Below, in pieces: positions 4,900-60,668 of a stretch of 64,000 bases of DNA. A program made the translations under genes and the position numbers. The stretch spans positions 19,888 to 83,887 of the forward strand of contig JBEKLL010000003.1 of the NCBI GenBank assembly GCA_050010215.1. Reading direction: 5' to 3'. The notes below the pieces were generated by a model, which had not been told where the DNA came from, did not search any database, and worked only from the letters and a program-made list of their open reading frames with translations. This DNA is from Gaiellaceae bacterium (GTDB lineage: Bacteria > Actinomycetota > Thermoleophilia > Gaiellales > Gaiellaceae). How positions within the stretch are numbered: the first letter of the stretch is position 1; every line of letters begins with the position of its first letter.

Positions 4900-6534
<1,635 letters not shown>

Positions 6535-8149: not shown

Positions 8150-8205
8150 CCCGTCGGTAGTCGGGCCGCGGAGCGCTGGTCGCCTGTGAGGCGATCGTCC
8201 CACCC

Positions 8206-8256
8206 TCGTCACAAACGCCCCTTGACACCAACCGGTGCCTGACACCGTTTTGGTAG
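8206..8256 (+). repeat. REP-like repeat copy A (TCGTCACAAACGCCCCTTGACACC-aacc-GGTGCCTGACACCG)
   Basis: Same sequence family as the copies flanking the RAYT gene at 30.8-31.5 kb. Confidence 0.75.
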
Positions 8257-8347
8257 AACGCGGAGCCCGCGCGCAAAAGCTCCTGCTAACACCGCGATTT
8301 GTCGACGCGATAGCCGGCTCGGCGACGGTGGAGACAAAGGCGCACTC

Positions 8348-8390
8348 TCGTCACAAACGCCCCTTGACACCCAACGGTGCCTGGCACCGT
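8348..8390 (+). repeat. REP-like repeat copy B
   Basis: TCGTCACAAACGCCCCTTGACACCCAACGGTGCCTGGCACCG. Perfect 7-1-7 dyad CGGTGCC-T-GGCACCG. Confidence 0.75.
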
Positions 8391-8448
8391 TCGAGGCCAG
8401 GATCTCTCCGCGTGGGGAGCGAGAGTAGCGGTGGCGACGCGCGCGGCG

Positions 8449-22594: not shown

Positions 22595-24863
<2,269 letters not shown>

Positions 24864-30691: not shown

Positions 30692-30771
30692 CGGGCCAGT
30701 CGCAGACGTGCGGATGGCGACTTTCGCCGCGCGTACGGGTGCTTTGGGGGAGCCTCGCGAAAGTCACTTTT

Positions 30772-30824
30772 TCGTCACAAACACCCCTTGACACCCCCCG
30801 GTGTCAGACACCGTTTGGTGTCAA
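30772..30824 (+). repeat. REP-like repeat copy C (downstream flank of RAYT)
   Basis: TCGTCACAAACACCCCTTGACACC-cccc-GGTGTCAGACACC-gttt-GGTGTCAA. Two hairpins or a nested dyad. Lies 12 nt from the RAYT stop. Confidence 0.8.
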
Positions 30825-30836
30825 GTCTATGTCGCG

Positions 30837-31421
30837 TTAAGAGTGCAACTCTTTGTGCCCGAGCGGGGTTGTGACCGGGCTCTGGGACTCGATGAACTCG
30901 CGGTAGCGAGCGCGCCATTCGGCGCCTCCTCCAAAGGCATTTCGTAGTTCTTCCTCGCTCAGGAAGGCCGGGCTCGGCTCAACTCCGGCGCTGGCTCGGT
31001 AGCTATTCCACGGCCAGTCGGAAGGCCGATCGCATAAGCCGGCTCGGACAGGGTTGTGTGCGACGTAACGGCAGGCGGTGAGCAGGTAGGAATCCGAATC
31101 GATTGGCTGTGCCAGAAACCGATTTAGAAATAGATGAGCACTTCGTCCATGGACGTGGTTGAAGTGCCTCGAGTAGCCGCCGTGCAGCTCTCTTAGCGCT
31201 GCCGAAAGGTGGGCGTCCGGTGTCTGAACAATCAGGTGATAGTGATTGCCCATCAGGCAGTAAGCGAGGCAGGGAAGCTGGTAGCGCTCCATGGTTTGCT
31301 CGAGTCGCTCGAGGAACTCGTCACGGTCACTGTCGAGGAGGAAGAGCGGTCGCCGATCACTGCCTCGTGAGGCAACGTGGTAGATACCGTCAGGGACGAA
31401 TATGCGCGGCGGTCGGCCCAC
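30837..31421 (-). CDS. REP-associated tyrosine transposase (RAYT; IS200/IS605-like Y1 HUH transposase)
   Basis: HUH motif GNHYHLIV. Catalytic-Tyr helix ACRYVAHNPVRAG. About 194 aa, single gene with no tnpB. Flanked by REP copies. Confidence 0.85.
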   Translation of the reverse strand: MGRPPRIFVPDGIYHVASRGSDRRPLFLLDSDRDEFLERLEQTMERYQLPCLAYCLMGNHYHLIVQTPDAHLSAALRELHGGYSRHFNHVHGRSAHLFLNRFLAQPIDSDSYLLTACRYVAHNPVRAGLCDRPSDWPWNSYRASAGVEPSPAFLSEEELRNAFGGGAEWRARYREFIESQSPVTTPLGHKELHS

Positions 31422-31480
31422 GCATCAAGCCTAGATCTGGCTCCCGCTCCAGATGGGCTCGTGAGATAAACGCTCCACTT

Positions 31481-31529
31481 TCGTAACGCATTTTTCTTGA
31501 CACCACCCGGTGTCTGACACCGGGTGGGG
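31481..31529 (+). repeat. REP-like repeat copy D (upstream flank of RAYT)
   Basis: TCGTAACGCATTTTTCTTGACACC-accc-GGTGTCTGACACCGGGTGGGG. Confidence 0.75.
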
Positions 31530-41267: not shown

Positions 41268-42041
41268 ATGCCGGGCAGATTCGAGGGCAAACGCGGGTTG
41301 ATTCTCGGCGTCGCCAACAAGCGCTCGATCGCCTGGGCAATCGCGCGCAGGCTCGCCGACGAGGGAGCGGCGCTGGCCTTCACCTTCCAGGGCGAGCGCA
41401 TCGAGACGAACGTGCGCGAGCTGGCGGAATCGGTCTCGAGTCCGCTCGTCACCGCCTGCGACGTGCGCCAGGAGGAGGATTGCAGGCGCGCTGTGAGCGA
41501 GGCCGCATCCGCACTCGGCGGTCTCGATTTCGTCGTGCACTCGGTCGCCTTCGCGGCCGCCGAGGATCTCGAAGGGCGCTTCGTCGACACGCCGCGCGAG
41601 CGCTTCTGGATGGCGCTCGACGTCAGCGCCTACTCGCTGGTGGCGATCGCCCGCGCGGCCGAGCCCTATCTCGCCGAGACCAGTGGCTCGATCGTGACCA
41701 TGACCTACCTTGGCGGTGAGCGCGCGGTTCCGCACTACAACGTCATGGGCGTGGCCAAGGCGACGCTCGAGGCCTCGATGCGCTACCTCGCCTGGGATCT
41801 CGGCGTCGAGGGTATCCGCGTCAACGCGGTCTCGGCCGGTCCCGTTCGCACGCTCGCCGCGCGCTCGATTGCGGGCTTCCCGACCATGGAGGCGATCGTC
41901 GGCGAGCGCGCTCCACTTCGGCGTCAGATAGACGCCGAGGATGTCGCCGCCGCCAGCGCCTTCCTGCTCTCCGACGACGCCCGCAATGTCAGCGGCACGA
42001 TCCTCTACGTGGACTCCGGCTACCACGCCATGGGCATGTAG
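41268..42041 (+). CDS. fabI: enoyl-[acyl-carrier-protein] reductase (NADH)
   Basis: GKRGLILGVANKRSIAW, Y..MGVAK catalytic motif. 257 aa. Confidence 0.9.
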   Translation: MPGRFEGKRGLILGVANKRSIAWAIARRLADEGAALAFTFQGERIETNVRELAESVSSPLVTACDVRQEEDCRRAVSEAASALGGLDFVVHSVAFAAAEDLEGRFVDTPRERFWMALDVSAYSLVAIARAAEPYLAETSGSIVTMTYLGGERAVPHYNVMGVAKATLEASMRYLAWDLGVEGIRVNAVSAGPVRTLAARSIAGFPTMEAIVGERAPLRRQIDAEDVAAASAFLLSDDARNVSGTILYVDSGYHAMGM

Positions 42042-42191
42042 CTCGCGCTCTCGGCCGGCGGCTCCGTCCGGCGAGGCGCGACTCGCCTCCCGGGGCCGCC
42101 TGACACCGCTGAGCGCACTTCGCTCTACGGCGCCGTGCGAAGCACTGTCTCCTCCGGCGAAGCACACTCAGCGGCGCCCCGAGAGCGCGAG
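42042..42191 (+). repeat. 150-nt structured repeat (same family as the tRNA-trailer elements), directly after the fabI stop
   Basis: P1 CTCGCGCTCTCGG / CCGAGAGCGCGAG (13 bp perfect). Hairpin GGCGAG-gcgcga-CTCGCC. P2 CGCTGAG/CTCAGCG. Core CACTGTCTCCTCCGG. Confidence 0.7.
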
Positions 42192-42573
42192 CGGCGACTC
42201 GGTGTTGTTCGGACTTGGCCGGTAGCTCTGTGAGGCCGGGCGCGACGGAACTCCCTAAGAAGCTGGTCGAGATCGCTTGCGAACAGCCTATTTGCAGGTA
42301 TTTACCAACCTTCGCGGCGTCCCGGCGTCGTAGAGGGTGGTTGGCAAGAGCGGGCGCTTGACTTGAGGGGAAGCCGAGCACGCAACGCAAGTCGTGCTCA
42401 CAGGTCTGAGCCGTTCTTGTCTCCGAGAGCGTGCGAGCGGGGTGCGGCGCCCCGCCCGCACGCCGCTATCGTCGGCTTCGCCCGCGATCGCTCAGCTAGG
42501 CTGCTCGATCGTGAGCGGCGGTTCCACGAAGACGTTGGGCCGACCGTGACGACCTTTCAATGAAGACGGATAG

Positions 42574-54097: not shown

Positions 54098-54532
54098 ATG
54101 ACGCGAGTGCTCATTATCGACGACGAAGCGCCGATCAGGCTGCTTTGCCGTGTCAATCTCGAGGCCGAGGGCATGGAGGTGGTCGAGGCGGCCGACGGAG
54201 CAGCCGGGATCGCGCAGGCGCGCAGCGAGCGCCCGGACGTGGTTCTGCTCGATGTGATGATGCCGCGGCTCGACGGTTGGGAAGTAGCGGATGCCCTGCT
54301 CCGCGACGAGCTCACCAAGGAGATACCGATCATCTTCTTAACTGCTCGAGCCGAGGTGCGGGATCGTGCTCGTGGACTCGATATCGGCGGCGTCGAGTAC
54401 ATCACCAAGCCGTTCAACCCGCTCGAGCTGGCTCCTCTGGTCGAGGATCTCATCGCGAGGATCCAGCGCGACGGGATCGATCTCTTGCGTAGCGAGAAGC
54501 TGGCCGAGCTACGCGCCCTCTCCCGCGAATAG
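54098..54532 (+). CDS. single-domain response regulator (receiver only)
   Basis: IDDE acidic pocket, phospho-acceptor LLDVMMP, conserved T and K (ITKPF). Confidence 0.85.
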   Translation: MTRVLIIDDEAPIRLLCRVNLEAEGMEVVEAADGAAGIAQARSERPDVVLLDVMMPRLDGWEVADALLRDELTKEIPIIFLTARAEVRDRARGLDIGGVEYITKPFNPLELAPLVEDLIARIQRDGIDLLRSEKLAELRALSRE

Positions 54533-54661
54533 TCCCGCCGGTAGAACCGGCGCAGACTTCTCGCGGCGGCGGAGGCAGGCGAATGAGCCGCGCCCGCGTA
54601 GGTCGGTCGGGGCGGCTACCGAATGCAGGGGCGAGCCGCCGGGGGCGTAGACTTCTGACGG

Positions 54662-54735
54662 CGGGACGTGGCGCAGCCTGGTAGCGCGCCTGCTTTGGGA
54701 GCAGGAGGCCCCCGGTTCGAATCCGGGCGTCCCGA
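54662..54735 (+). tRNA. tRNA-Pro (anticodon UGG)
   Basis: Hand-folded cloverleaf: acceptor CGGGACG/CGTCCCG, anticodon loop TTTGGGA, T-arm CCCGG-TTCGAAT-CCGGG. No encoded CCA. Confidence 0.9.
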
Positions 54736-54898
54736 CCTCGCTTACTCGGTCTGCGGCTTCGTGCGGCCAAGCAGGCGGGTCTTCCGGGGCCGCCTGGCAC
54801 CGCTGGCCGCACGTCGCTCTACGGATCTGTGCCGGATGCACTAACCCCTCCGGCGCCGCACGGCCAGCGGTATCCCGAAATAGCGAGAAGCTTTAGTA
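54736..54898 (+). repeat. tRNA-trailer structured repeat (copy at tRNA-Pro)
   Basis: P1 CTCGCTTACTCGG / CCGAAATAGCGAG. Hairpin GCGGCC...GGCCGC. P2 CCGCTGGCCG / CGGCCAGCGG. Core CACTAACCCCTCCGG. Confidence 0.7.
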
Positions 54899-54917
54899 CG
54901 AATCCGGGTGTCCCGAC
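54899..54917 (+). repeat. displaced duplicate of the tRNA-Pro 3' end (att-like direct repeat)
   Basis: CGAATCCGGGTGTCCCGAC versus tRNA 54718-54736 CGAATCCGGGCGTCCCGAC (18/19). Followed by TTTTCTTCGG. Confidence 0.7.
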
Positions 54918-54941
54918 TTTTCTTCGGACGTTCGCTGGCGC

Positions 54942-54966
54942 GGTAGAAACGGTGTTTGACACCGGG
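54942..54966 (-). repeat. partial REP-like copy E
   Basis: Reverse complement CCCCGGTGTCAAACACCGTTTCTACC matches the dyad part of REP copies A-D. Confidence 0.5.
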
Positions 54967-54996
54967 GCCGGACGGTCGTGGGATATCCTGCTCCGG

Positions 54997-55587
54997 ATGG
55001 CTCACGACGACTGGCGAATTCACGTCGAGCTCGCGGGAGAATCCGAGCCGGCCGGTTTTCTCGAGCGCCTCAGAAGCGGTCTCGGCGACGAGGCTGAAGA
55101 GCTTGCGAAGACGCTCGAGGGCGATCGCCTTGCGATTTCCCGTGACGGCAGCGAGCTCTTCGCCTACGCCTCGAGCTATCTCCAGGCCGAAAGCGCGCAC
55201 GCCGTGATCGAGGCCGAGCTCCGGCGCCACGGCTTCGAGGCGAAGGTCAGCCGCGTCGAGCACTGGCTCGAAAGCGAGGAGCGCTGGGACGATGAGCCGA
55301 AAGGCGAGACCTGGGAAGAGGAAGAGGCCGAGCACGGCCGGGCTCCCTGGGAGGTTCGCGTACAGTGCGAATCCCACTCCGCGGCCCGTGACCTGGCGGA
55401 GCGGCTCGAGGGCGAGGGCTACCGGCCGGTCAGGCGCTGGCGCTACCTGATTGTGGGGGCCGACACGCGCGAGGATGCCGAGAAGCTTGCCCGGCGCCTG
55501 CACGGCGATGTCGAGGCGGGCGGCGACGTGGCTTGGGAGGAAGCCGCCGACGCCGGCGTCATCAGTCCCTTTCGGATCTTTGGCTAG
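54997..55587 (+). CDS. hypothetical acidic cytoplasmic protein
   Basis: Start moved to the internal ATG because the 5' 168 nt of the ORF cover repeat sequences. Glu/Asp/Arg-rich, 196 aa. Confidence 0.5.
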   Translation: MAHDDWRIHVELAGESEPAGFLERLRSGLGDEAEELAKTLEGDRLAISRDGSELFAYASSYLQAESAHAVIEAELRRHGFEAKVSRVEHWLESEERWDDEPKGETWEEEEAEHGRAPWEVRVQCESHSAARDLAERLEGEGYRPVRRWRYLIVGADTREDAEKLARRLHGDVEAGGDVAWEEAADAGVISPFRIFG

Positions 55588-55599
55588 CGGATCCCGGCG

Positions 55600-55728
55600 G
55601 GCGAATTCGCGAAGTCACACGGCTCCGTAGAGTGACGTGCCGCCGAGGGCGTCAGGAAGGCCCGCCGGCCTGGCGCACCGGCGAGTAGCAACGGCGAGCG
55701 GGAGGAGCCGGGGTAATAACGAATCGCC
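55600..55728 (-). repeat. partial second (tandem) copy of the tRNA-trailer repeat
   Basis: Reverse complement aligns to the Pro copy through GCCAGGCCGGCGGGCCTTCC...GGCACGTCACTCTACGGAGCCGTG, then truncates. Confidence 0.4.
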
Positions 55729-55878
55729 CTCGCTTCCTCGGGACGCCGCTAAGCGTGCGAGCCCGGAGAGGACAGTGTTTCCACACGAACTCGAAGAGGA
55801 TCGTGCCGCCAGCGGCGCCAGGCGGATCCGGGAGGCCGGGCTCCCCGGCCGCACGGAGCCGCCGACCGAGCAAGCGAG
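55729..55878 (-). repeat. tRNA-trailer structured repeat (copy at tRNA-Gly)
   Basis: P1 CTCGCTTGCTCGG / CCGAGGAAGCGAG. Hairpin GGCCGGG-gag-CCCGGCC. Core CACTGTCCTCTCCGGGCTCGCAC identical to the Arg-UCG copy. Confidence 0.75.
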
Positions 55879-55879
55879 A

Positions 55880-55950
55880 AAGCGGGTGACGGGAATCGAA
55901 CCCGTATAGCCAGCTTGGAAGGCTGGAGCTCTACCGTTGAGCTACACCCG
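55880..55950 (-). tRNA. tRNA-Gly (anticodon UCC)
   Basis: Cloverleaf: GCGGGTG acceptor, anticodon loop CTTCCAA, T-arm ACGGG-TTCGATT-CCCGT. No CCA. Confidence 0.9.
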
Positions 55951-56075
55951 CGGGCACCGGTAGCCTAGCGTCCGGCGATGCCGGGGTGAGCTCCCGGTGT
56001 AATCCCCTTTTCGAGGGGCCTTTTCCTCACTTCGGAGGATTAACAGAGGCCGGAAAAAGGTCGATCCTGCCTTTT

Positions 56076-56621
56076 GTGGTCTTCCGGAAGTCGGGACGAG
56101 TCGTTGCGTGCGCCTTCGGCGTTGTTCTCGTCTGCCTGCTCGCGGCACCGGTTGCCGGTTCGGCGCCGGCAAGTGGCCGAACGGTCTCCGCTACAGCGCT
56201 GAGCAATCAGATCCTGCGCGAGGTGAACCGCGTCCGCGCACAACACGGCCTGCGGCCGCTCGCGGCGTCGCCTCAACTGGCCGGCGCTGCCGCAAGCCAT
56301 TCCCGCTCGATGGCACTGCGCGGATACTTCGCGCACGAGTCGGCTGACGGCTCGGTCTTCTGGCATCGAATCCAGCACTATTACGGCGGGAGCGGATTCC
56401 ACTACTGGGCGGTGGGCGAGAACCTTGTTTGGGCGTCGCCGAGCCTGAGCGCAAAACAAGCGGTACAGATGTGGATCAAGAGTCCTCCGCACCGCGCGAA
56501 CTTGCTGAGTACGCGCTGGCAACAAATCGGCCTGTCGGCAGTGCATTCGCCCAGTGCGTCGGGCACCTATCAGGGTCGTGCAGTAACGATCGTGACGGCC
56601 GATTTCGGCGTTCGTCGCTAG
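56076..56621 (+). CDS. secreted CAP/SCP-domain protein
   Basis: Signal-like N-terminus from GTG 56076. CAP motifs (REVNRVRAQHGLRPL, GENL, SPPHRANLL). Confidence 0.75.
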   Translation: MVFRKSGRVVACAFGVVLVCLLAAPVAGSAPASGRTVSATALSNQILREVNRVRAQHGLRPLAASPQLAGAAASHSRSMALRGYFAHESADGSVFWHRIQHYYGGSGFHYWAVGENLVWASPSLSAKQAVQMWIKSPPHRANLLSTRWQQIGLSAVHSPSASGTYQGRAVTIVTADFGVRR

Positions 56622-56656: not shown

Positions 56657-57099
56657 AGCCCGCAGACGGCCGTCTCGAGATGGGATCGAGCGGCCCCGAC
56701 CGGTGTGAAGCCGGGAGCGAGTTGGGCGCTCATCGCTACGGAGGAGTGGCCGTCACACATTGCGCTCGACTTTCGCTCCAAAGACGGGATTCGTACTCCA
56801 GGCGTCTAGTCAACGGGCGTTCTCCGTCCTAGCTTCTGAGTATGAGGCTAGAACCGATTCCCCTCGCTCTGGCTGTTCTTTTCGCGCCTAGGGGGAGTCG
56901 TGCGCAGCCAGCACCAGCGCAAGCCTAAGCGTGGGATAGTTGCAAGCGCGAGCTCGAGCGGTTGAGTTCGCGCCTATCCCTGGACCGCCAAGCAACATGC
57001 GCATACCGGCACAGAGAAGGCACATTTGCTGCGCTTTTCCCCGCTACCGTGCGACTACCCCGCGGGCGGGTGGTTTTGGAGGCGGGCGCAGAACGTGGT

Positions 57100-57146
57100 C
57101 AGGAGGCCGTACGTATCGGCCGGGCGGAGTAGCCGACCGAGCGAAG
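57100..57146 (-). repeat. 5' portion of a tRNA-trailer repeat (copy at tRNA-His)
   Basis: In tRNA sense CCTTCGCTCGGTCGGCTACTCCGCCCGGCCG-atacgta-CGGCCTCC, versus the Gly copy TTTCTCGCTTGCTCGGTCGGCGGCTCCGTGCGGCCGGG. Confidence 0.45.
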
Positions 57147-57220
57147 GGTGACCGGTGGGATTCGAACCCACGACCACCGGGACCACAACCCGGGGCTCTA
57201 CCAACTGAGCTACGGCCACC
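57147..57220 (-). tRNA. tRNA-His (anticodon GUG) with encoded G-1
   Basis: Cloverleaf: extra 5' G opposite discriminator C, anticodon loop TTGTGGT, T-arm GTGGG-TTCGAAT-CCCAC. Confidence 0.9.
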
Positions 57221-59311: not shown

Positions 59312-59396
59312 GCGGGCGTGGCGGAACTGGTAGACGCGACGGGTTTAGGTCCCGTTGGGCCGAGTGCCTGTGGAGGTTCGAGTCCTCTCGCCCGCA
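59312..59396 (+). tRNA. tRNA-Leu (anticodon UAG)
   Basis: Type II tRNA with long variable arm. Anticodon loop TTTAGGT. Acceptor GCGGGCG/CGCCCGC. Confidence 0.9.
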
Positions 59397-59553
59397 TCCT
59401 CGGCGCACTGACCGTGGGTCGGCTTTGTGGCCGACCCGCTGACGGTTCTGGACTGCAGGATGCTGCGCATGCCTCGCTTGTCCGTACCGGGCGTACTGTC
59501 CTGCGCTCGGCATCCTTGCCTCCTTTGCCAGAACCGTCTCAGTGCGCCGAGGA
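59397..59553 (+). repeat. tRNA-trailer structured repeat (divergent copy at tRNA-Leu)
   Basis: P1 TCCTCGGCGCACTGA / TCAGTGCGCCGAGGA (15 bp). Hairpin GGGTCGGC-tttgtg-GCCGACCC. P2 GACGGTTCTGG / CCAGAACCGTC. Core TACTGTCCTGCGCTCGG. Confidence 0.65.
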
Positions 59554-59650
59554 AGCGCCGCGTTGATGTGAGAATCGAATTAGCGCTGCGCTCTTGCCAC
59601 CTCCTTTGCTAGCGCCGCTCCAGCACGCCGAGAAGCGATTCTGTGAATAT

Positions 59651-60434: not shown

Positions 60435-60596
60435 GCGCTCTCTCGCTTGCTAGGGGCGCCGCTGGCGGTGCGAGCCCGGAGAGGACAGTGGACACCACCA
60501 CGGCCTCGGAGAGGATCGTGCCGCCAGCGGGGTCAGACGGCTCCGGGCGACCGGTCGCGCCCGGGCGGTCGGAGCCGCCTGCCGAGAGCGCGGGAG
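60435..60596 (-). repeat. tRNA-trailer structured repeat (copy at tRNA-Arg UCG)
   Basis: P1 GCGCTCTC/GAGAGCGC. Hairpin CCGGGCG-cgaccggt-CGCCCGG nested in GGCTCCG/CGGAGCC. P2 CCGCTGGCGG/CCGCCAGCGG. Core CACTGTCCTCTCCGGGCTCGCAC. Confidence 0.75.
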
Positions 60597-60668
60597 CGGC
60601 CCCGGGAGGAATCGAACCTCCGCACGCGGATTCGAAGTCCGCCGCTCTATCCACTGAGCTACGGGGCC
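60597..60668 (-). tRNA. tRNA-Arg (anticodon UCG)
   Basis: Cloverleaf: GGCCCCG/CGGGGCC acceptor, anticodon loop CTTCGAA, T-arm GGAGG-TTCGATT-CCTCC. Confidence 0.88.

Follow-up and report, generated by a model that had tools for sequence, protein, structure and literature searches.

In a 64,000-nt stretch of genomic DNA from a Gaiellaceae bacterium (hereafter the window), we identified a gene-less, Y-shaped repeat of about 155 nt that is joined to the 3′ ends of transfer RNA (tRNA) and protein-coding genes and that, behind tRNA-Pro(TGG), is bracketed by two copies of the tRNA 3′ end. Related loci showed the same repeat directly behind many tRNA genes, a transfer-messenger RNA (tmRNA) gene and stop codons, in some cases with a duplication of the local gene end. 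We propose that it may be a non-autonomous mobile element whose insertion at the 3′ boundary of a gene duplicates the target, a proposal that we regard as evenly balanced between being right and wrong. Two parts of this proposal are inferred: that insertion itself creates the duplication, and that it is catalysed in trans by an enzyme from another locus.

The tRNA-Pro end is duplicated around an inserted repeat

A sequence-only reading of the window had pointed to a duplication of the last 19 nt of tRNA-Pro(TGG) on the two sides of a short insert. This was borne out: CGAATCCGGGCGTCCCGAC (54718-54736) and CGAATCCGGGTGTCCCGAC (54899-54917) match at 18 of 19 positions, whereas 0.08 matches with three or fewer mismatches would be expected by chance in the entire 64-kb window. 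The sole further match to the 19-mer in the window, at 41866 and with three mismatches, falls within the coding sequence of a short-chain dehydrogenase/reductase (SDR). The similarity could be lengthened to 20 of 23 positions (GGTTCGAATCCGGGCGTCCCGAC, 54714-54736, versus AGTACGAATCCGGGTGTCCCGAC, 54895-54917). The locus is laid out as follows:

54662-54736, plus strand: tRNA-Pro(TGG) gene (ARAGORN end 54737, Rfam end 54735; Rfam tRNA 68.1 bits)
54714-54736, plus strand: proximal duplicate, reaching from the T-stem/T-loop to the tRNA-Pro end
54737-54893, plus strand: copy A of the repeat, about 157 nt, between the 19-mers (covariance model R1, 154.8 bits)
54737-54749 and 54874-54887, plus strand: outer stem of copy A, CTCGCTTACTCGG pairing with CCCGAAATAGCGAG (consensus structure)
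about 54752-54794 and 54800-54870, plus strand: arm 1 and arm 2 of copy A (arm 2 by pattern match)
54888-54894, plus strand: short 3′ tail of copy A, AAGCTTT (tail comparison)
54895-54917, plus strand: distal duplicate of the tRNA-Pro 3′ end, in drift (18/19 over 54899-54917, 20/23 over 54895-54917)
54918-54927, plus strand: T-rich TTTTCTTCGG, directly 3′ of the distal fragment and without similarity to the repeat

The discriminator A of tRNA-Pro is at 54735 and is followed by one additional C at 54736. The reading of the 19-mer was supported as a displaced copy of the tRNA 3′ end that arose in connection with the inserted repeat, and the occurrence of TTTTCTTCGG behind its second copy was likewise upheld; this T-rich segment is presumed to be the original trailer of tRNA-Pro. 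The window alone has an orphan tRNA-Pro end, none being found elsewhere in approximately 1.1 Mb of related loci (numbered with the prefix L below). An nhmmer search of 54918-55000 found no trace of a second element after the fragment, and a tandem duplication of fragment plus element was rejected as the fragment's source because no element remnant lies behind it.

A family of Y-shaped repeats in Gaiellaceae

Each member of the family spans about 155 nt and folds into a Y, in which an outer stem (CTCGC..CTCGG with CCGAG..GCGAG) carries two arms. The element termini, CTCGCGCTCTCGG and CCGAGAGCGCGAG, are 13-bp terminal inverted repeats that form the outer stem, and no open reading frame (ORF) lies between them. 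The absence of a gene supports the earlier suggestion that the repeat would have to be moved in trans. Covariance model R1 recovered four strong copies and one diverged copy from the window; besides copy A, the following copies and fragments were found:

42042-42197, plus strand: copy D, immediately behind an SDR (adh_short_C2) gene whose TAG stop is at 42039-42041 (155.4 bits)
55615-55674: degenerate partial copy beyond copy B
55723-55878, minus strand: copy B, 2-3 nt after tRNA-Gly(TCC) (55881-55951, minus strand; 146.9 bits)
57100-57145, minus strand: weak vestige of the repeat's 5′ part, abutting tRNA-His (57146-57219, minus strand; model positions 9-49 by nhmmer, E 0.14 for 450 nt searched)
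59399-59557, plus strand: copy E, strongly diverged, 3 nt after tRNA-Leu(TAG) (59312-59396; 31.9 bits, E 4e-5)
60436-60594, minus strand: copy C, 2 nt after tRNA-Arg(TCG) (60596-60668, minus strand; 140 bits)

Copy D has a possible 7-nt flank repeat, GTAGCTC, 24 nt past the model end. Decayed tRNA fragments were considered in the tails of copies B and C and rejected, as the sequence in question, GGCRATTCGTTGTTGTCCGG, is the element's own tail and also occurs at non-tRNA copies. Near tRNA-His, the sequence-only reading had seen in a recurring junction word a weak hint of a second footprint. The word does recur, as the 11-mer AGTACGAATCC on the minus strand (56787-56797), which begins 349 nt further downstream than tRNA-His. 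Compared with tRNA-His it agrees in the T-loop part (11/13) and not in the acceptor strand (3/11); it also matches the tail variant GTAGTGCGAAC found in repeats elsewhere, and the AGTRCGAA motif is likewise present in tail variants at other loci. The recurrence stands, and the footprint was rejected.

Scanning GTDB species genomes with the arm-2 pattern returned at least 116 loci and, among the matches listed, all belonged to metagenome-assembled genomes (MAGs) with the labels Gaiellaceae, Gaiellales or unclassified Actinomycetota. The covariance model recovered 111 full-length copies in the window together with the first 99 listed loci. In an alignment that was itself fitted to this model, 92.8% of pair cells hold standard pairs, compared to 37-48% when partners are slid by 1-3 columns, both sides have changed in 36 of 50 pairs, and no shuffle reached the observed covariation. 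The invariance of the CCGCTG, GCAC, CTCT, CTCCGG and AGCGG motifs is partly an artefact, as the scan pattern required them. Judged from these substitutions, the Y-shaped fold is strongly supported and is under selection, whichever molecule is concerned. Selection on the sense-strand RNA, which G:U pairs in four copies had suggested, was withdrawn: at paired positions of the 111 copies, A:C mismatches (148) exceed G:U pairs (90, with one invariant U:G pair left out).

No family in Rfam 15 matches the repeat, tRNAs alone reaching gathering scores, and an E-value search of 54500-56100 (E ≤10) against the same release returned nothing on it. A full-text literature search retrieved no account of such a repeat in Gaiellales, nor of elements resembling miniature inverted-repeat transposable elements (MITEs) at tRNA 3′ ends. 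Small structured repeats are common in bacteria. Paralogous copies within a genome are 92-94% identical, which suggests a fairly recent spread. Recurrence of the same unit of about 155 nt, with the same ends, more than 110 times led us to reject the alternative offered by the sequence-only reading, namely that the insert is the remnant of a deleted island. The uncatalogued repeat looks instead like a small mobile element, and not like the scar of an integrase island.

A subfamily starting with CGCGCGYCCCTCGCC is present at approximately 20 loci, for example L064 (1000-1155), L009, L061, L062 and L070. Its copies lie at overlapping stop/start (RTGA) junctions within operons, on the opposite strand, with NTCA on either side. 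At these junctions the adjacent base completes the GTG or ATG start codon of the downstream gene.

The repeat is locked to gene 3′ ends

Positions were counted over all fetched loci, comprising approximately 1.1 Mb and 118 tRNA or tmRNA genes, by recording elements within 40 nt of a gene. The element was found at 36 of these genes, on the 3′ side and the same strand in 36 of 36 cases, and at a distance of 0-4 nt from the gene end in 35 of them. At least 14 different anticodons are represented among the tRNA genes concerned, and one tmRNA gene (Rfam 173.6 bits; L088, 5808-6307) has a copy directly behind it. At approximately 22 other copies, a stop codon on the same strand lies within a few nucleotides of the start, often in the form TGA-N-CTCGC. 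A gap of 0-4 nt in a single orientation is more than selection against gene disruption alone can give, so the gene end is apparently what the element targets. To our knowledge, no repeat has been described before that adjoins, in a single orientation, the terminal base of genes for tRNAs, tmRNA and proteins.

Retention by function offers a complementary explanation, which we consider possible though doubtful: the repeat would be kept at gene 3′ ends as a terminator or transcript-end stabilizer, and the duplicated tRNA end would be a neutral by-product. Consistent with this, copies are always on the sense strand directly behind the gene, and Arg-TCT, the only tRNA gene of the window without a repeat, has a canonical hairpin and T-run 45 nt downstream instead. 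Canonical terminators are similarly present at the repeat-free tRNA-Pro genes of relatives, and the standard tails are moderately T-rich (TTCGTTGTTGT) after a GC-rich stem. However, a simple terminator consensus scan flags nothing at the elements, the preponderance of A:C over G:U (148 versus 90) leaves no signature of sense-RNA selection, and function would leave the arrival of the element at the exact gene end unexplained.

Occupancy of the tRNA-Pro site varies among relatives

Of 34 metagenome loci containing the exact tRNA-Pro 3′ half, four carry a full copy, three a partial or mini copy and 27 none. Empty tRNA-Pro sites, for which the sequence-only reading had proposed a search, are thus found in relatives, and no element-free relative has a second 19-mer. 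An ordinary terminator hairpin is present at many of the 27 element-free loci. The tRNA-Pro(TGG) sequence is identical in L071, L153 and L156, and synteny is retained in relatives, with a response regulator, tRNA-Pro and the same downstream gene.

The element stands at tRNA-Pro without a fragment in L071, L123 and L144 and as three tandem copies in L156; L153, L105 and L110 have just a terminator there. The closest relative, L152 (87% and 81% protein identity), has the element and an additional partial copy; its tail was considered as an orthologue of the window's fragment and rejected (13/20, not significant once offsets are allowed for). In L158-L160 (2209-2500; 75% protein identity), tRNA-Pro, its promoter and a mini copy are inverted between the response-regulator and downstream genes. 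A more distant relative, L066 (2239-2540), carries a diverged 60-nt 3′ part of tRNA-Pro approximately 190 nt after the gene. This footprint is of the classical integrase type, with an insert that bears no relation to the Y-shaped repeat.

Gene-end duplications at other copies

Direct repeats were sought in 107 copies with the anchor at the element's 5′ junction, and 10 of the 107 have junction-anchored repeats beyond any shuffle. The individual cases comprise:

L092: tRNA-Thr, 28/28
L013: tRNA-Ala(GGC), 24/24 and 21/22
L052: tRNA-Ala(CGC), 24/24
Window: tRNA-Pro, 18/19
L118: orphan tRNA-like 3′ end, 23/23
L020: tRNA-Leu, 10/11
L064: protein-gene junction, 14/15
L080: protein-gene junction, 14/16

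The tRNA-end duplications around other copies that the sequence-only reading had foreseen are therefore present, at tRNA-Thr, tRNA-Ala and tRNA-Leu. Each flanking repeat corresponds to its own local gene end. As the duplicated segment differs by locus and matches the local target, it would have been made at the target and not carried there by the element. The clearest case is L064, where the overlapping stop/start (RTGA) between a permease and the next gene is duplicated; one copy retains the stop and the other the start, so that both operon genes are intact. In L013, two different element variants are each accompanied by a separate 22-nt fragment of tRNA-Ala; the one nearer to the tRNA is perfect and the farther one has one change, which is the order predicted by successive insertions at one tRNA end. 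We know of no small structured repeat described before that sometimes duplicates 15-28 nt of a gene end while the gene survives.

Across the family, exact repeats of at least 6 nt located 10-36 nt past the model end were observed in 16 of 103 copies, compared to 2-3 of 103 in control windows further on and 5.4 (maximum 11) when flank partners were permuted. A short tail starting with AAG after GCGAG goes together with 19-24-nt tRNA fragments from the T-stem/T-loop, the carriers being copy A, both L013 copies, L052, L073 and L118. Such fragment-bearing tails measure 7-10 nt, compared to 20-25 nt in the standard form.

Origin of the duplications

In the mechanism that we propose, the element would land with its 5′ end 0-4 nt past the terminal base of a gene, be it for a tRNA, a tmRNA or a protein, and would always point the same way as the gene. 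The target strands would be opened some distance apart; after fill-in, the gene end would be present twice, intact on the proximal side of the element and as a spare copy on the distal one. For short-tailed copies at tRNA genes, the opening distance would be approximately 22-24 nt, extending from the T-stem/T-loop to the gene end. At tRNA-Pro of the window, the proximal copy would be kept by selection as part of the tRNA, and the distal copy (54895-54917) would be free to drift, with one to three changes to date.

Slippage after insertion is an alternative that we think improbable. The element would land without a duplication. In a later round of replication, a nascent strand that had already copied tRNA and element would re-anneal through microhomology of the tail with the T-loop, so that the last 20 nt or so of the tRNA would be re-copied and the base of the hairpin skipped. 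Junction microhomologies fit this account (CGAA at copy A, cf. tail variant GTAGTGCGAAC; GGT at L013; CGGT at L118), as do the truncated tails of the fragment carriers, of 7-10 nt instead of 20-25 nt, and the restriction of fragments to a minority of tRNA-end copies. Nevertheless, at the protein-gene junctions of L064 and L080 a single element stands between repeats of 15-16 nt, L013 would require two independent rare events at one locus, and the family as a whole shows an excess of junction-anchored repeats at a fixed offset. Moreover, nearly all short-tail copies bear fragments, which resembles an insertion property of a subfamily and not an accident. On account of the paired fragments in L013, the bracketed single elements at protein genes and the lack of an element remnant after the tRNA-Pro fragment, creation of the duplication at insertion is favoured over slippage.

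The sequence-only reading had itself interpreted the tRNA-Pro locus as the attL/attR footprint of a tyrosine integrase. In its fuller form this would be a miniature, cis-mobilizable element carrying a tRNA-Pro identity segment, with the integrase encoded elsewhere. The layout is canonical, an intact tRNA being accompanied by a displaced, directly repeated 3′ part; integrases classically target tRNA-Pro 3′ ends, empty sites exist, and L066 has a separate, classical-looking footprint at tRNA-Pro. We nonetheless consider this mechanism highly improbable. Members of the family sit behind at least 14 tRNA species as well as at a tmRNA gene and at stop codons; the duplications match their own local targets, which leaves no travelling identity segment; and they are missing from most copies (27 of 32 at tRNA ends). 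Crossover in the T-loop would further yield chimeric tRNAs at non-cognate targets, of which none were seen, and no integrase is listed in the Pfam gene tables for 1.6-64 kb of the window. The same tables hold no DDE transposase, reverse transcriptase or Cas1.

Several observations also weigh against our own proposal of insertion with target duplication. Among the 32 full copies at tRNA ends, 27 have a tail that is no closer to its own tRNA than to other tRNAs, so the long duplication must be exceptional or quickly lost. Repeat lengths range from approximately 4 to 28 nt, with no single ruler, and the 3-5 nt of microhomology at the tail/fragment junctions fit the template-switch rival too. Two fragments are non-cognate, a tRNA-Ala(GGC) fragment ending the tRNA-Leu copy in L105 (3478-3720) and another in L021; these need an additional event, which could be later recombination between copies or MAG misassembly at repeats. 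The exact empty-site allele, …GGGCGTCCCGAC followed directly by TTTTCTTCGG…, is absent from all fetched loci, the databases contain no relative nearer than 81-87% in protein identity, and the nearest paralogue of copy A in the sample is 78% identical. Finally, no autonomous parent in the form of a split copy enclosing an ORF was detected in the 1.1 Mb of loci, and no candidate enzyme linked to the element was found. As a side observation, the region of window copy E (59399-59600) possibly contains a decayed counterpart of the L105 fragment, AATCGAATTAGCGCTGCGCTC.

A more far-reaching form of the proposal, which we hold to be unlikely, is that the repeat represents a new class of non-autonomous element that homes to the exact gene 3′ boundary by way of a gene-end feature, leaves long and variable duplications, and is driven by a type of enzyme new to small repeats. 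The feature that is read could be, for example, the T-arm/acceptor region or a stop/start junction, and the driver could be a Cas1-like integrase, a SINE-like (short interspersed nuclear element) reverse transcriptase or another enzyme.

Comparison with known systems

Casposons are the nearest parallel in working, given their tRNA 3′-end target, their use of the T-loop region and a long duplication that spares the gene end. The casposase of Aciduliprofundum boonei targets the 3′ end of tRNA-Pro, needs the T-loop-encoding segment and makes a 15-bp duplication, with off-target duplications in vitro of 4, 16 and 22 bp (PMC5137440). In contrast, casposons are multi-kilobase elements with their own Cas1 and polymerase genes, compared to 155 nt and no gene here, and their duplication overlaps the tRNA by 5 bp and is otherwise downstream, whereas here it is inside the tRNA. 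With no Cas1 in the gene tables for 1.6-64 kb of the window and no ORF in the element, the Y-shaped element is not a casposon; the resemblance is in working, not in membership.

Integrase islands and their gene-less derivatives share the arrangement of intact tRNA, insert and displaced direct 3′-end copy, as well as occupancy that varies among relatives. Their repeat is, however, an element-borne identity segment that is the same everywhere, whereas the duplication here is locus-specific, usually absent and also found at non-tRNA targets.

Repetitive extragenic palindromic (REP) elements and the BIME (bacterial interspersed mosaic element) and REPIN (REP doublet forming hairpins) arrangements moved by REP-associated tyrosine transposases (RAYTs, Y1 type) resemble the Y-shaped element in being small, gene-less, numerous, conserved in structure with compensatory stem changes, situated behind genes and moved in trans. 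REP elements are hairpins or hairpin pairs of 20-40 nt that are not known to have a fixed gene-end junction or a target duplication, whereas the Y-shaped element is joined to gene ends at the level of the single base, in a fixed orientation and with long, variable duplications.

The window itself encodes a RAYT homologue (30837-31415, minus strand; Pfam Y1_Tnp 28.8 bits; NCBIfam REP_Tyr_transpos 68 bits, below the 80-bit cut-off), the sole transposase-like gene in the window tables, with a gene call truncated at the N-terminus. It is flanked by 75-nt repeats (30741-30815 and 31450-31524) carrying CTTGACACC and the palindrome GGTGTCNGACACC. A link between this gene or palindrome and the Y-shaped element was rejected, as no association was seen in 1.1 Mb of related loci. 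A second repeat family, centred on GGTGYCNGRCACC (7 matches in the window versus 0.67 expected), has sites at 8175-8249, 8317-8391, 30741-30815 and 31450-31524, with a single palindrome at 54951-54963. This last copy lies 34 nt past the tRNA-Pro fragment and falls within the promoter region of the next gene.

MITEs are comparable in size, 13-bp terminal inverted repeats, flanking direct repeats and non-autonomy. Their duplications are normally fixed and short, in contrast to the approximately 4-7 to 28 nt recorded here, with none detectable at many copies, and their interiors are without structural selection. Long, variable duplications are characteristic of the IS4-family members IS1634 and IS1549. 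We know of no MITE that is confined, in a single orientation, to the terminal base of tRNA genes, and a search of the 1.1 Mb of loci for a parent insertion sequence with the same ends, as a pair of 5′ and 3′ partial matches around an ORF, found none.

Palindrome elements derived from IS200/IS605 differ in having a fixed tetra- or pentanucleotide target and no duplication, as opposed to the heterogeneous left flanks of the tRNA-associated subfamily and the long duplications described here; a constant NTCA flank is limited to the CGCGCG subfamily. Class C group II introns insert in sense orientation just past a stem-loop that ends a transcription unit, and SINEs are small, structured, RNA-derived elements with target duplications of variable length. 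From both, the Y-shaped element differs in that no ribozyme domains, reverse transcriptase or poly(A)-type tail were seen, and no evidence of an RNA intermediate was obtained.

Other features of the window

A 744-aa ORF at 22595-24829 (minus strand) consists mostly of repeats with a 9-nt period (CCGGTNGNN on the plus strand) and encodes a collagen-like Gly-X-Y protein. Both JGI contigs that cover the window end within the region of this ORF. The tRNA-Pro region belongs to JGI metagenome contig Ga0427963_0000741, and the protein encoded downstream of it occurs in identical form in an NCBI MAG of a Gaiellaceae bacterium. A paralogous gene block occupies 10.6-13.4 kb and 17.6-20.5 kb, at approximately 71-79% nucleotide identity and with segment spacings of 5646-5670 and 9162 nt.

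Implications

If the insertion model is true, Gaiellaceae, which are abundant yet poorly studied soil actinobacteria, would harbour a means of targeting gene ends at single-nucleotide precision. A problem that integrases and casposases have solved would here be solved with a cargo of 155 nt, which would be of interest for the design of site-specific insertion tools. The model would also explain orphan tRNA fragments and assembly breaks beside tRNA genes in Gaiellaceae MAGs. Should the repeats in addition terminate or stabilize transcripts, they would provide a case of mobile 3′-end modules.

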